64,000 nt of DNA from a phage, in the sequence record OZ346205.1; one strand, written 5' to 3'. Of this stretch, positions 33,166 to 39,110 are shown in pieces (position 1 is the stretch's first letter; the number at the start of each line of letters is the position of its first letter). Position numbers and translations under genes: made by a program. The notes beneath the pieces were generated by a model. That model had not been told where the DNA came from. It made no database searches and saw only the letters and a program-made list of their open reading frames with translations.

Positions 33166-33930
33166 TTGAAATTTATCTACAAAGAACACTACCACAAAGG
33201 TGTTGTGTGGAGCCTGTTTGACGGATCTGGTGGTGCAGTCATTGACTGGGCAAAAGCTGGGTATCTGTGCCTGTGCTTTAATGCAGAAGGTGCTGATCAC
33301 GGCAGTTATGCAGAGGTGATAACCGATCATCCCAACATTCACTATGTGGATTATTGGATTGACCCATGGTTCCCTCAGGAAACTTTTTGCATGTACCCAG
33401 CTCCAGACTTTATTCTTGCATTTCCTCCGTGCACGCATTTAGCGGTATCAGGTGCTGCACATTTTAAGAAAAAGCTGGCTAAGGATCCTTTGATCCAAAT
33501 TAATGCTGTAAAGGATGCTCGGGTTGCGGAAGAGTTGGGAGAGATTTACGATTGCCCGTGGCATGTAGAGAATCCTGTAGGGGTTATGTCCACACTGTGG
33601 CGAAAACCTGATTACCGTTTTCATCCTTCGGATTATGGTGGGTATTTACCGGAGGATGATGTAAACCCCTGGTTTCCTGAATTTATAGCTCCACGTGATG
33701 CCTATCCAAAAATAACTTGCGGCTGGATAGGCAATGGATTTATAATCCCGGCCACAAAACCTGTCCCGCAAATAGTTGACGCGGTTAGCGGGTATTCCAT
33801 GCAACACGCCAAGCTGGGTGGAAAGAGTGCAAGAACGAAGATGATCCGAAGCCTCACGCCACGTGGCTGGGCAAAAGCCGTATTCTTAGCAAACGAGCCT
33901 GTAGTAAGGAGCAGAATTAATGGGAAGTAA
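33166..33930 (+). CDS. cytosine-5 DNA methyltransferase-like protein (about 254 aa)
   Basis: TTG start after AGGAGA (track start lies inside the terminator); motif I FDGSGG, motif IV FPPC, motif VI ENPVG; short for a Dcm-type enzyme. Confidence 0.5.
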   Translation: MKFIYKEHYHKGVVWSLFDGSGGAVIDWAKAGYLCLCFNAEGADHGSYAEVITDHPNIHYVDYWIDPWFPQETFCMYPAPDFILAFPPCTHLAVSGAAHFKKKLAKDPLIQINAVKDARVAEELGEIYDCPWHVENPVGVMSTLWRKPDYRFHPSDYGGYLPEDDVNPWFPEFIAPRDAYPKITCGWIGNGFIIPATKPVPQIVDAVSGYSMQHAKLGGKSARTKMIRSLTPRGWAKAVFLANEPVVRSRINGK

Positions 33931-35998
33931 ATTTATGGCATCTGCATACAACCGTTTCGGTGAGCCAAACCCGAAAGCAACTAAGTATAAAAGTGGGGGA
34001 AGTGTGAAACGAGACTATCGTGATGAAAAAGAGGTTGAAACTGTAGAGACTGTTTTAGAAAATACTAAAATCGTCCCTGTCCCACAACAAAATATCGGTC
34101 TGATGGCTGCACAATATTTTGGTGTGCGATCAGCATTATCCCAAGAAGATGGTGTGACAGTCACTGCAACATATTTCCCATATTACGACCGCTACGGAAA
34201 TCTGTCCGGTTTCAAAAAGCGTGACTGGACGATTCCTAAAGAGCAAAGAGGCCATTTCTCCGTTGTTGGCATAGTAAAGGCTAACTCTCAGATGTTTGGT
34301 CAAAAGCTGTGTGCATCTTCCAACAACCGTAAGCAGATTAACGTTTGTGAGGGAGAAGGTGATGTTATTGCAGCATGGCAGGCTGCATATCAGATACAAG
34401 TAAAAGGGATTCTCACCAACGCTAAAGCCCCGGCAAAGGTGAAACAGTGGGCTAAAGAGGTCCAGGACGGGATCGATGCAGTTATCAACGGTGGCGATCT
34501 GGCAGGAAAACCATGCCTGCCTTTTGTTGGAATTAACTGTGGATGTGCAAACGCAGTAGATACTTTTGCAAACAATGAGAAGTTTATCCGTAGCTATGGA
34601 ACAGTTGTGCTGGCAATGGATAACGATGCAGCTAACGAGGTAGAGAAGCAAAAACACGTCATTAAAGGTGTTGAGGCCACGCACAATATCGCAGCATTTT
34701 TGATGGCTGATAACGTTTACCACGTAGAATACCCTGGTGAAGTAAATGACCCTGACGGGGTAAAAGATATCCGTGACATGCTGAAGGCTAAAAAGCTGGA
34801 AGATATTGTCAACATGTTCCGGCACCCTGTTAAATATGTGCCTGATGCTGTGTCGGATTTAGAAGACTTCTCTATCGAGTCTTTGCGGAAAAAGACTTCC
34901 AACGGGGTAGATATCAGCGCAGAGTTCCCAAAACTGCAAAAAATGCTAAAAGGCTTGCACAAAGGGACACTCGTAATGCTTACAGGGCCATCAGGGGGCG
35001 GTAAAACAACTGTAGCTAAAAAACTGGAACATTGTATTGCAAGATACCTAATGGACCCGACATGCCCGAAGGCTGATGACTATGAAGAGGATGATCGTCT
35101 ATGTATGATCCATCTTGAGGAGGACCCGGAGGAAGCAATTAACTCCTTGTATGCAAACCAGTTAGGGTTTGATGTTAAAGAGTTTGTTGAAGATCCTAGC
35201 CAGTTTTTAACTGATCAAGAACACGCAGAGATTCACCAATCATGGGCAAAAGCTGGAAAAATCAAAGTGTTCAAACATTTCGGATCTATTCCGGTGGACG
35301 AGTTGATTACCAAGCTTAAGCAAATGGTTTGCCTGTACCATTGCCGTTATATTGTGCTGGATCACCTGTCCATGGTAATTTCAGGGCTTAATGTTAAGGA
35401 TGAGCGAAAAGAACTGGACATGGCTATGACTCAGCTGGCTGCGTTTTGTAAGCAGTTTAACGTGTTTATCTTAGTGATCGCTCACCTCAAACGTACAGAG
35501 ATTGTGCCTCCTAAGGACAAGGATGGTAACCCGTTACCTTTCTGGTATCCTGTGCGAAAAGAGAATTTGCGAGGATCGGCGGGGCTTGAACAGTTGAGTT
35601 GGGTAGTCATAGGTGTCGAGGCCGAAGAAATGGTGGATCGTTCTCGTGGACGTGTCCGTCTGGTAGGTCTTAAAAACCGTCCAGCAAAAACTTTAGGTAT
35701 TGCTGACACTTTGGTTATGGACCCGCACACAGGTAAGTTCCATGATGCCAGTAATTGGTACTGGGACAAAGAAATGCAAATGTTTACAGACGGAGAAGGT
35801 GGGGAGGTTGTTTGGAGACCTCAGGCTATGTTTGAGGATCAGGAGCATGCAGTTGTAGAAACACCTATGGGCAAGGTTGTGGCTGATAAGGTTGTAACTC
35901 CTACTGTTAAGCCTGTTGACACGCAGGAAGACCTCCAGTACGATGATCCATCCTCTGACCCGGTCCCTGGTTTTGAGGATGATGAAACGCCTTTTTAA
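33920..35998 (+). CDS. bifunctional primase-helicase (toprim + SF4/DnaB-like), 692 aa
   Basis: Toprim acidic motifs CEGEGD and LAMDNDAANE; Walker A GPSGGGKTT; Walker B YIVLDH. Confidence 0.7.
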   Translation: MGSKFMASAYNRFGEPNPKATKYKSGGSVKRDYRDEKEVETVETVLENTKIVPVPQQNIGLMAAQYFGVRSALSQEDGVTVTATYFPYYDRYGNLSGFKKRDWTIPKEQRGHFSVVGIVKANSQMFGQKLCASSNNRKQINVCEGEGDVIAAWQAAYQIQVKGILTNAKAPAKVKQWAKEVQDGIDAVINGGDLAGKPCLPFVGINCGCANAVDTFANNEKFIRSYGTVVLAMDNDAANEVEKQKHVIKGVEATHNIAAFLMADNVYHVEYPGEVNDPDGVKDIRDMLKAKKLEDIVNMFRHPVKYVPDAVSDLEDFSIESLRKKTSNGVDISAEFPKLQKMLKGLHKGTLVMLTGPSGGGKTTVAKKLEHCIARYLMDPTCPKADDYEEDDRLCMIHLEEDPEEAINSLYANQLGFDVKEFVEDPSQFLTDQEHAEIHQSWAKAGKIKVFKHFGSIPVDELITKLKQMVCLYHCRYIVLDHLSMVISGLNVKDERKELDMAMTQLAAFCKQFNVFILVIAHLKRTEIVPPKDKDGNPLPFWYPVRKENLRGSAGLEQLSWVVIGVEAEEMVDRSRGRVRLVGLKNRPAKTLGIADTLVMDPHTGKFHDASNWYWDKEMQMFTDGEGGEVVWRPQAMFEDQEHAVVETPMGKVVADKVVTPTVKPVDTQEDLQYDDPSSDPVPGFEDDETPF

Positions 35999-36056
35999 TG
36001 TTTAACAAAGAGTGGGAGGGGTAGTACAACCGCCTCCCCTTTAAGGAGAACTGTAT

Positions 36057-38480
36057 ATGAGTATGTGGTCTTTCGATTTTGAGTCATCCGGTTTGCTGGA
36101 AGACCCAGATCTTTATTATCACTGCGGTCTGTTTAAAGAGCTGAATAAGAACCGTTTTATGCTGTTCCTTCCTCTAAATGACCGCACACACTACTCCGAG
36201 GAGGATATAGAAAAGGCTAAGAACTTCATTCTGTCAAAGAAAACTCTTTATAAAGATTTTGAAGTTCGCATAGCAGATTTTTCGGAGTTGGAAGGTTGGC
36301 TTACAGGCAATTCTGACTGGTCACCAACAGCTTTGAACTGCCATAACTGCTACAGTTATGACTTTATGCTAATGGAAAGATTATCCGGTATTCATTTTGA
36401 TATGTTCCGTGATCCTAAATGCATGGGGACTATCAACGACCACCAGGTTAACCTGTTTGATACGTTGGCTATGAGCCGAATCTTGTGGCCTGATCGCCCT
36501 TTACCAAAAGGTTGTCCGGACGCTGTATTCAACCCGGTTACTAAGAAAATGCAACCTGTTGGTCCTCACGGCCTTATGGCATGGGGCTACGCCCTTGGTA
36601 ACCAGAAAGTTCAAATTGATGACTGGCGCGATCTTCCGTTGTGGAAGTATGTGGATCGTGTATTCGAGGACGTTATCATCCAGGAGCTGCTCTGGAAAGA
36701 GCTGGTAGCGGAATCAAAAGGTGTATTCTACGGCAAATCTGACATGCAGAACTTTATGTACGATCCAGCCAAAGAGAAGCCGAAAGGGTTCAAGAAGATC
36801 ACCTGGAAGAACGCATTACGTCGAGGCATGCTGCAGCACTTCCTGATGGAGCTGCAGGCCCGTCAGGGTGTATACTTCGACATAGATGGAGCTATTGCTT
36901 TACGTGACCGTTGCGATGCGTGGATGAAAGAAATCGCTGATCGTGTTGAACCACAACTACCTTTAAAAGAGCTGTCAATGTCTCAGCGGCCCAAGTTCCC
37001 TGAAAAGCCGTTTAACCAAGACGGGACAATCTCTAATAATGGTTGGAAATGGTTAAAAGATAAGCTTGGCTATCCTGTAGACATGAGTGCTTTAGAGTTC
37101 AAAGCCCCGCCTAAGCGAGCATTTACCTCTACAGGAGATGTCAGCAAGATGGGGATAAAATGGTGTGAAGAGATGGGCTGCAAAGACCCCGATAAGATGG
37201 CTGATTTCTTGAGAGGCTATATTAAGGGCACCTCCACACCACAACCCTTACCTAAAGAGCTGATGGATCAGGCAATAAGTGATCTGCAGCAGAAGCGAAT
37301 GCCTGACTGCAAGATACCTATGAAAATCAGCAATCAGGACGACATCAAGCGATACCTAATCAGTGCTGGTTGGCTCCCAACAATGTGGAGAACTAAAGAT
37401 GTAACTAAAGACAGCAAGAAGAAAGCTTTACCTGATGCAGATGTTGATGCACGAGTATATGCATATATGGACGAGCTTTTGGAGTCAGAGTATTGTGACC
37501 TAATTATCAACTTCTGGAACAAAACTGATGCTAAGTTCCAGACAACCGTGCACAAGTTCCGAAGCTTTCCTAACTCCGAAAGGATTAAAAAGGAAGTATT
37601 CGGGAAAATACGTAGAAAAGCCAGGGCACTTATTACTTCTCCGCAACTGAAAGATACGTTTGGACACCTATGCCCAAATCTTGAAAAATTGAACGGAGAG
37701 ATGGCTAAAGATATCGTCTTGTGGTTATCATTGCGAAACCGCAGATCGGTCCTTGATCCAATCAAGGAGGATAAGGTTGATACTGGTCTTCTTAATCACC
37801 CACGTTTGAAGATTGACCATAAGCTTCCTGCTAAAAGCTCTGGATTAACAAACACTTCCAGACAGAAACACAGTATTTGTGCAAACATGCCTAAACCATC
37901 TCCTAAAGTGGTTATGGGTAAAGAGATGCGTAGTCTGTGGGGTGTTCCTCCGGGATACTTTGAGATCGGTATTGACGGGTCCAACTTAGAGCAGCTTATC
38001 GGGGCTTGGGGTGCCTTTGAGTTCGACAACGGCCTGTATTATGATGTTGTAAGTAACGGAGACGCACACCAAAACAATGCTGAGGCATATACAAAAGTGG
38101 CAGGCAGAGAGGTGTCCCGTAACGACGGTAAACCTATCACGTATGGGGTTATGTACGGGGCACAAAAAGATAAAGTTGCAGATATGTTGGACATCTCCCC
38201 AGAGTTGGGACAAAGGGTAATCGATGCACTCTGGGATGCCAACCCAGGTCTTAAGGGGCGCAAAGAGGATCTGGAGAAATTCTGGGAAGCAACAGGTAAG
38301 AAGTTTATCTACTCTTTTGATGGTCATGCTATCTGGACCCGATCTAAACACTCTTTACTTAATGCATACCAACAAAATGGCGGTGCATCGTTGTGTGACT
38401 TAGTTGGAATACTCATGCACCACCAGATGGTGAAGCGTGGGTGGTACGATGAAGGTGTTCGTCGTATTATTTATTACCAT
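36057..38480 (+). CDS. family A DNA polymerase, exon 1 (ends inside motif C at ...YYH)
   Basis: Exo motif FDFESSG; motif A IDGSNLEQL; motif B KPITYGVMYGAQ; frame terminates 2 codons after the His of the expected HDE motif. Confidence 0.8.
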
Positions 38481-38756
38481 AAATAACATTGTGGCTTCAT
38501 AGAGTAATCTATGTCGAATAACCTCTTTAACTGCGGGAAGCCTAAACCTTATGGCAAGGTAATCCGCAACGAAGCGCTCAAAAGAGCGAACGCTCAGAGG
38601 CCATTCCGAAAGGAAGTAGACCAGCAAGTGCGGTCGAAATGGGAGGATTCCTGTGGTTGCTTATCATAGGAATATGAGATGGTCCGATCCTACGTGAAAA
38701 CGTATGGCTATGCACGTAATGGTGCGGGGTAGCTTAACGACCTACCTGAACTATTG
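38481..38756 (+). ncRNA. putative group I-like self-splicing intron (no endonuclease ORF)
   Basis: 276-nt ORF-free insert between ...YYH and DEYQ...; exon ends in U with GUGG 11 nt downstream able to pair CCAU (P1-like); insert ends in G. Confidence 0.55.
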
Positions 38757-39110
38757 GATGAGTACCAACTTCAAGTGCCTGACACACCGAAGTATAAGAC
38801 TGTGTACACCTTCGACACAATTGAAGAACTGGAAGCATTTAAGGCAGAGCAGGAAGCCAAACTTCATGTGTTCGACGGTCATAAGTACAAAAAGGCACGC
38901 AAGGATGAGGACGGAAACGAAGTGGTTGACAGAGACGGAAACACGGTGTACGATCCTATCCTGAACGATGACGGAAAGCTTGAACTTATCTGGAGCCCTG
39001 TGGGTGAAATGGTGGTACATTGCTTCTGGCAAGCTTCTAAAATGATGGGAGTCCCGTTCCAGATCACAGGTGAATACTTGTGTGGTCGTAATTGGGGTGA
39101 TTGTCACTAA
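38757..39110 (+). CDS. family A DNA polymerase, exon 2 (motif C remainder to C-terminus)
   Basis: Begins DEYQ completing YHDEYQ; ends ...GRNWGDCH, matching the Pol I / T7 C-terminal G.NW..H pattern. Confidence 0.75.
   Translation, partial: DEYQLQVPDTPKYKTVYTFDTIEELEAFKAEQEAKLHVFDGHKYKKARKDEDGNEVVDRDGNTVYDPILNDDGKLELIWSPVGEMVVHCFWQASKMMGVPFQITGEYLCGRNWGDCH

Follow-up and report, generated by a model that had tools for sequence, protein, structure and literature searches.

The stretch of DNA analysed here (the window, 64,000 nt of sequence record OZ346205.1) comes from an rV5-like Escherichia myovirus (Vequintavirus), its segment 36000-39200 showing 98.8% identity to phage rV5/V5 and O157 typing phage 5. 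Next to a T7 gp4-like primase/helicase gene (33920-35998), on its 3' side, lies an ORF for a family A DNA polymerase that breaks off inside catalytic motif C, which raises the question of how this phage makes its polymerase: as one protein after removal of an intron, as two polypeptides, or not at all from this gene.

A polymerase gene interrupted in motif C

The polymerase ORF (36057..38486) encodes 809 aa with the C-terminal end ...RRIIYYHK; the His codon occupies 38478-38480, so placing the last base of exon 1 at T38480, and is followed by AAA and by TAA at 38484-38486. From 38757 the polymerase continues in frame as GAT GAG TAC CAA (DEYQ) and runs to ...GRNWGDCH and a stop at 39110, whereas the ORF finder reports a downstream ORF from a TTG at 38754 to 39110, in a frame other than that of exon 1. 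Motif A (GIDGSNLE), motif B (KPITYGVMYG) and the terminal His of motif C are contained in exon 1, and exon 2 starts with the catalytic Asp-Glu of the same motif. When aligned with T7 gp5, the junction reads yyHDEyQl against wvHDEiQv in T7, the T7 residues D654 and E655 corresponding to the first two residues of exon 2; motif A aligns as GIDGSNLE against GIDASGLE (T7, D475), and motif B aligns too. The catalytic aspartates, which serve as metal ligands in the T7 and Pol I polymerases, are therefore divided, one lying in exon 1 and the other in exon 2. The score of the Pfam model DNA_pol_A rose from 27.9 to 31.8 bits after conceptual splicing, both values being below the curated cut-off of 34.3; this gain lends weak support to splicing, for which the real evidence comes from the alignment with T7 gp5 and from the intron-less alleles.

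The insert (38481-38756, 276 nt) ends in G38756 and contains stop codons in all three frames. No endonuclease ORF was found in it, the longest ATG ORF being one of 52 aa without a Pfam match or a Shine-Dalgarno sequence. A conceptual splice probe of 400 nt (200 nt per exon) matched many close relatives without interruption at 95-98% identity, including JeffSchatz, EdH4, A51.2, V18, JES2013, and slur16. In JeffSchatz and V18, used here as the intron-less alleles, the polymerase is a single 925-codon CDS in which the two exons are contiguous, and the DNA at the site reads ...TATTACCAT directly followed by GATGAGTACC..., with no insert and collinear with the conceptual splice. Because the bases flanking the boundaries differ (exon 1 has T as its last base and the insert G, giving T/A at the 5' boundary and G/G at the 3' boundary), the insert can only be 38481-38756. 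Its excision restores the polymerase reading frame as found in these alleles, and the conceptual product is a single polymerase of 925 aa in which motif C is whole (YYHDEYQ). The expected spliced junction is ...UAUUACCAU joined to GAUGAGUACC..., with IIYYHDEYQLQVPDTPK as the junction-spanning tryptic peptide. A preliminary description, made from the sequence without database searches, had reported the frame break within motif C, the resumption at DEYQ after 276 nt, the GRNWGDCH terminus, and an insert ending in G with no endonuclease ORF. All of these are correct, the T7 gp5 alignment spans the junction as that reading of motif C implies, and the boundaries it gave (38480/38757) are exactly those fixed by the intron-less alleles.

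As to translation signals, AGGAG lies 8 nt 5' of the ATG of the polymerase (36057), of the primase/helicase and of a downstream gene. No Shine-Dalgarno-like sequence was found upstream of TTG 38754 or of GTG 38775, the latter being the start of exon 2 used in RefSeq, and exon 2 offers no in-frame ATG before position 39009. Given the UAA at 38484-38486, translation of unspliced RNA would end there; AA(A/G)UAA opens 11 of 12 homologous introns.

Group I fold and covariation of the insert

The Rfam group I model RF00028 matched the + strand at 38471-38706 over its full length (1-253) with 64.7 bits, where the gathering score is 50, and with an E-value of 4e-14 for the whole window; a second intron or another RNA family was not found in the 64-kb window by a permissive Rfam scan (E<=1). 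A secondary structure from P1 to P10, including P7.1/P7.2 and P9.1/P9.2, was derived by hand (Table 1). At the 5' splice site, U38480 forms a wobble pair with G38491 of the internal guide sequence (38487-38494), GUGG at 38491-38494 (bases 11-14 of the insert) pairing with CCAU at 38477-38480. P7 includes the invariant pair G38599-C38684 and forms a pseudoknot with P3. The minimum free energy fold has a modest z-score of -2.83 and recovers the local hairpins, the P3/P7 pseudoknot being impossible in such a fold by construction. Subgroup IA2 is recognised by two additional helices, P7.1 and P7.2, that lie between P7 and P3' with G-U-A joining them (PMC3428280); the insert is assigned to this subgroup because it possesses P7.1-GUA-P7.2, with GUA invariant in 11/11 sequences.

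Table 1. Features of the interrupted polymerase gene and of its insert (positions in the window)
Feature	Position	Strand	Evidence and remarks
DNA polymerase exon 1	36057..38480	+	808 codons; ORF list, T7 gp5 alignment, Pfam DNA_pol_A match
Group I intron, IA2-like, no endonuclease ORF	38481..38756	+	RF00028, intron-less alleles, covariation
P1	38477-38482 / 38489-38494	+	exon CCAU and intron AA paired with UUGUGG; 6/6 pairs invariant in 11/11
In-frame UAA stop in P1 loop	38484..38486	+	one codon past the 5' splice site
P2 hairpin, 5 bp	38498-502 / 38509-13	+	double changes in 5/5 pairs, 100% paired
P3	38522-38527 / 38641-38646	+	double changes in 3/6 pairs, 100% paired
P4-P5-P6 domain	38532..38592	+	P4 38532-37/38563-68, P5 38541-43/38557-59
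P6, P6a	P6 38570-71/38591-92, P6a 38575-79/38584-88	+	P6 100% paired; P6a loop is the HNH gene site in relatives
P7	38599-38603 / 38680-38684	+	100% paired; one double change (U-A to C-G)
P7.1, GUA linker, P7.2	38604-07/38612-15, 38616-18, 38619-22/38632-35	+	compensatory changes; GUA invariant 11/11
P8 hairpin	38647-38652 / 38668-38673	+	double changes in 5/6 pairs, 100% paired
P9 hairpin, GAAA loop	38689-95 / 38700-07	+	double changes in 5/7 pairs, 98.7% paired
P9.1	38712-15 / 38722-25	+	double changes in 2/4 pairs, 100% paired
P9.2	38728-32 / 38742-46	+	double changes in 3/5 pairs, 100% paired
Terminal G and candidate P10	38756..38760	+	GAUG 38757-60 can pair with CAUU 38487-90; read from the sequence
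DNA polymerase exon 2	38757..39110	+	117 codons and stop; T7 gp5 alignment, intron-less alleles

Homologous introns for comparison were the inserts at the same polymerase His/Asp-Glu position in 11 other phages, namely APECc02, JLBYU08, HMD-6, Avunavirus 18-1-2, Vibrio K470, Vibrio 10AMN, Cronobacter CR9, Salmonella SSE121, Escherichia A5-4, Pectobacterium CB7, and Pseudomonas SPA01. These inserts start with AA(A/G/C)..., carry the UUGUGGC guide sequence and end in ...UG, and all of them either match RF00028 or have the conserved 5' and 3' ends. For the covariation analysis, 11 sequences were aligned with MAFFT, CB7 being left out, and ORF loops were cut from five of them with 6 nt of each P6a strand kept. 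The structure pairs in 93.9% of cells, as compared with 36-41% when the 3' partners were slid by 1-3 columns, and double-sided changes were seen in 35/68 pairs as against 4-12 in the slid controls; none of 500 column shuffles matched the observed pairing, double-change or covariation values. Every helix except P1 has at least one compensatory pair, P9.1 and P9.2 included, and P1 offers no covariation because all its pairs are invariant across the homologues. Pairing in the automatic alignment was lower for P4 (81.8%) and P5 (42.4%), since six relatives have a bulged base for which MAFFT opened no gap, and since P5 varies in length; once the strands are put in register, P4 forms in every sequence, as in UG[A]CGGG/UCCGCA and UG[U]CUGG/UCAGCA (bulged A or U).

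The preliminary description had proposed P1 from CCAU, GUGG and the U at the exon end; this helix is present, with U.G at the splice site, and is invariant in the 11 homologues. The covariance-model search it suggested yields the above-threshold RF00028 match, and the P3-P7 core, on whose recovery it had made the group I assignment depend, is recovered and covaries. Its account can be refined at the 3' end: the Rfam match ends at 38706, as it likewise stops short in the inserts of relatives, 50 nt before the 3' splice site, and the final 50 nt (38707-38756) hold a further pair of hairpins, P9.1 and P9.2, and then a 10-nt tail. Both hairpins are supported by covariation, and this extension past the Rfam match points to a lineage-specific addition. 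The terminal G is kept in 12/12 homologues, and the candidate P10 consists of 4 bp including one G.U, being weaker in the Vibrio and Pseudomonas members.

Judged from its sequence, the insert is almost certainly a functional self-splicing group I intron, the catalysis of this particular copy being deduced. In the proposed mechanism, the polymerase gene would be transcribed into a single pre-mRNA in which the 276-nt insert folds as an IA2-type group I ribozyme. The first step would be the attack of an external guanosine after U38480, held in P1 by the guide sequence, and the freed 3'-OH of exon 1 would then attack after the terminal G38756, joining CAU to GAU. Translation of the spliced mRNA would give the full-length enzyme with YYHDEYQ restored, and on unspliced RNA it would stop at the UAA at 38484, yielding a protein that lacks the catalytic Asp-Glu. 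That this copy would undergo such guanosine-dependent self-splicing is argued by analogy with the homologous intron of Pectobacterium phage CB7, which splices in vivo (PMC7344957).

Related introns, distribution and mobility

As a phage mobile element the intron is of an ordinary type known before, and it has already been annotated in sister genomes, neither of which figured in the preliminary description. LL12 (MH491969) and the BASEL collection phages RudolfGeigy (MZ501102) and MaxTheCat (MZ501094) carry the same 276-nt intron, 100% identical, at the same position. The LL12 record bears the note 'intron-interrupted gene; intron splice site predicted based on homology', and that of RudolfGeigy gives a two-piece joined CDS of 3054 nt (2424+276+354). 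The annotations of these three phages rest on homology, and their exons differ by 2-3%.

An experimentally supported comparison is the CB7_50 intron of CB7 (Certrevirus, Vequintavirinae), lying between CB7_51 and CB7_49, whose splicing was demonstrated by RT-PCR and sequencing (PMC7344957). It occupies the same His/Asp-Glu site (exon 1 ends in IIYYH and exon 2 starts with DEYQ), has the same 5' end and guide sequence, shares about 75% identity over the common parts and matches RF00028 with 46.6 bits; it differs in being 687 nt long with a 127-aa HNH ORF, whereas the present insert has 276 nt and no ORF. According to PMC3428280, which cites Bonocora and Shub 2004, PhiI and W31, both T7-like phages, have in the polymerase gene IA2 introns whose P6a holds an HNH gene; the insertion point is site 881 (E. 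coli Pol I numbering), the His residue of HDE in motif C. By their published descriptions, these introns resemble the present one in polymerase site and subgroup, and its ORF-bearing relatives in having the HNH gene in P6a, but they reside in podoviruses with a T7-type gp5 and possess an endonuclease (I-TslI in W31). The introns in td, nrdB and nrdD of T4 and those in the polymerase genes of SPO1, Bastille and Pf-WMP3 (IA2) share with it the ribozyme class and P7.1/P7.2, as well as insertion into highly conserved codons of DNA-metabolism genes, an ORF in a peripheral loop being a trait of the family (PMC3428280, and in part generally known). They differ from it in the gene or in the site, the polymerase sites being 674 in SPO1, Bastille and Pf-WMP3 and 676 in phiL7 (PMC3428280).

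A census with short junction probes against phage records found the contiguous, intron-less junction in 141 records (59 coliphage-like ones labelled Escherichia, 'Campylobacter' or Salmonella, and 82 ICP1-like Vibrio phages) and the exon-1/intron junction in 80. With regard to the features looked for in a mobile intron, close relatives are polymorphic for its presence or absence at this one site, and the 276-nt insert has no ORF for an intron-encoded homing endonuclease. The exact 276-nt form occurs in at least 24 records at >=95% identity, and 23 public phage records have it at 99.6-100%. It is identical (0/276 differences) in RudolfGeigy, LL12, and navn, in which the exons differ by 2-3%, a pattern that would fit recent lateral spread. 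Intron-bearing and intron-less alleles do not differ in the last 53 nt of exon 1, and any signal of co-conversion is weak because this stretch is conserved in the intron-less ones too.

Among the homologues, APECc02, CR9, SSE121, A5-4, and SPA01 have an HNH-type ORF (Pfam HNH_3) in an extended P6a stem loop, and the ORF of the CB7 intron starts in P5'/P4' and extends into P6. As compared with these relatives, the 276-nt intron is compact and ORF-less, with shorter P5, P6a and P7.1. In the preferred reading it is a compact, ORF-less derivative of a mobile intron family that targets the His/Asp-Glu codons of family A polymerase genes, and whose other members have, in the loop of P6a, a gene for an HNH homing endonuclease. 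It is conceivable, albeit unlikely, that the ORF-less form, rather than being a dead-end relic, still spreads among co-infecting rV5-like phages by being mobilised in trans by HNH endonucleases, which may come from the larger sister introns sharing this site or from free-standing HNH genes. Such mobilisation, if true, would explain the identity over 276 nt across lineages whose exons are 2-3% apart.

Alternative readings and consequences for annotation

Two separate 'DNA polymerase' CDSs appear in the RefSeq records of rV5 and of many relatives, and split genes that do not splice have precedents in Aeh1 NrdA and the CB7_245 insert (both cited in PMC7344957). The polymerase could accordingly be imagined as two separate polypeptides of 809 aa and about 111-117 aa, assembling after translation with the insert left unspliced. 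This is very improbable: the insert has the complete fold of a group I ribozyme, supported by covariation, splicing has been shown for the homologous intron at the identical site in CB7 (PMC7344957), and the break would leave the His of motif C on one polypeptide and the catalytic Asp-Glu on the other. Exon 2, moreover, opens without an ATG and without a Shine-Dalgarno sequence before either TTG 38754 or GTG 38775; the preliminary description, too, had objected that the downstream frame lacks an ATG and begins with TTG.

The insert might instead be a decayed remnant that has lost catalysis, so that the polymerase gene would be broken or would need a helper, a reading to which the loss of the endonuclease ORF, the shortening of P5, P6a and P7.1 and the bulged U38705 in P9, paired with A in relatives, would all be congenial. 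Yet every core helix is intact and the deviations in P7 are compensated (U-A to C-G, A-U to G.U). The same sequence also recurs at 99.6-100% identity in the 23 public phage records, with the polymerase split in all of them, and these include isolates grown on E. coli K-12 (RudolfGeigy, MaxTheCat, navn), so that decay is to be considered extremely improbable.

Three further candidates were rejected. An intein is contradicted by the stops in all three frames, the host frame stopping 4 nt into the insert; an assembly artefact, by the same insert in at least 24 independent records; and a chance match, by the E-value of RF00028 and by intron-less alleles that equal the conceptual splice base for base.

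With the self-splicing intron as the preferred reading, its consequences concern the records of this phage group. The genome paper of rV5 describes the polymerase as a 775-aa protein and mentions introns only for the terminase gene (PMC3606486). RefSeq rV5 (NC_011041) lists, besides the two 'DNA polymerase' CDSs, two small hypothetical CDSs, one within the intron and the other beginning in the intron and overlapping exon 2; both of these 'hypothetical proteins' are to be regarded as spurious, and many relatives also list the polymerase as two CDSs with no link between them. No new biological question is opened by the intron. Its family clearly exemplifies how a single pair of active-site codons in the polymerase gene, His/Asp-Glu, has been colonised in very different phages, those of Escherichia, Salmonella, Cronobacter, Pectobacterium, Vibrio, and Pseudomonas, and the main value of the finding lies in correcting the annotation of rV5-type genomes, in which the polymerase is to be recorded as a 925-aa enzyme with an intact motif C.

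Intron identity among relatives and a neighbouring HNH gene

When the intron was compared with those of RudolfGeigy, LL12, and navn, it was found to be 100% identical (0 mismatches over 276 nt); the flanking exons were 2-3% divergent, with 23-33 mismatches per 1081 nt in exon 1. In navn, a 735-nt free-standing HNH endonuclease gene was observed between the primase/helicase and polymerase genes, whereas the corresponding gap in the window holds a 58-nt spacer alone. Sixteen records labelled “Campylobacter phage” (MG0656xx, host C. jejuni) showed 96-98% identity to the coliphage polymerase region and many contain the identical intron; these records look like rV5-like coliphages that were either mislabelled or co-isolated.

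Coordinates of the features discussed
Feature	Sequence	Position
Motif C intron	Window	38481-38756
Reading frame (52 aa) corresponding to rV5 RefSeq “hypothetical protein” gp222	Window	38511-38669
Reading frame (86 aa) corresponding to rV5 RefSeq “hypothetical protein” gp221	Window	38704-38964
Uninterrupted motif B site	Window	about 38148-38153
Primase/helicase-polymerase spacer	Window	35999-36056
HNH endonuclease gene	navn locus (L018)	358-1092
Motif B intron	Avunavirus 18-1-2 locus (L008)	14-217
Motif B intron	CB7 locus (L010)	113-316
Motif B intron	SSE121 locus (L012)	51-199
Intron-like segment	Av-05, KM190144	120740-120872

Small reading frames in and across the intron

The 52-aa reading frame lies wholly within the intron, and the 86-aa one begins inside it and crosses exon 2 out of frame. 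Both are almost certainly spurious gene calls, given that neither has a Shine-Dalgarno sequence or a Pfam match. The “MSNN...” start is kept in Vibrio relatives, solely because the P2 RNA is conserved.

Introns at other sites

A second group I intron was noted within polymerase motif B (...TYG|VMYGAQ...) of Avunavirus 18-1-2, CB7, and SSE121, approximately 110 codons upstream of the motif C intron site. This position is uninterrupted in the window and is not among the sites already published for polymerase introns (674, 676, and 881). Furthermore, a segment of Escherichia phage Av-05, annotated as terminase large subunit, was 73% identical to intron positions 8-148, a match which suggests that its TerL gene holds a related group I intron; no such intron was detectable anywhere in the window by an Rfam scan of the whole 64 kb (E<=1).

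Conservation and variation of the insertion site

Around the insertion site (38462-38480 joined to 38757-38779), the coliphage sequence shares 90.5% DNA identity over 42 nt with Vibrio cholerae phage ICP1, and nucleotide conservation of the motif C homing target between the two is unusually deep. Compared with window positions 38757-38770, the intron-less V18 allele differs synonymously at four positions relative to the insertion site (+2, +5, +8, and +11), such that exon 2 starts with GAC GAA TAT CAG in V18 as opposed to GAT GAG TAC CAA in the window. Three of the four changes are also found in JLBYU08, in which a 329-nt intron is present. These synonymous changes may be the mark of variation in an endonuclease target, or of co-conversion.
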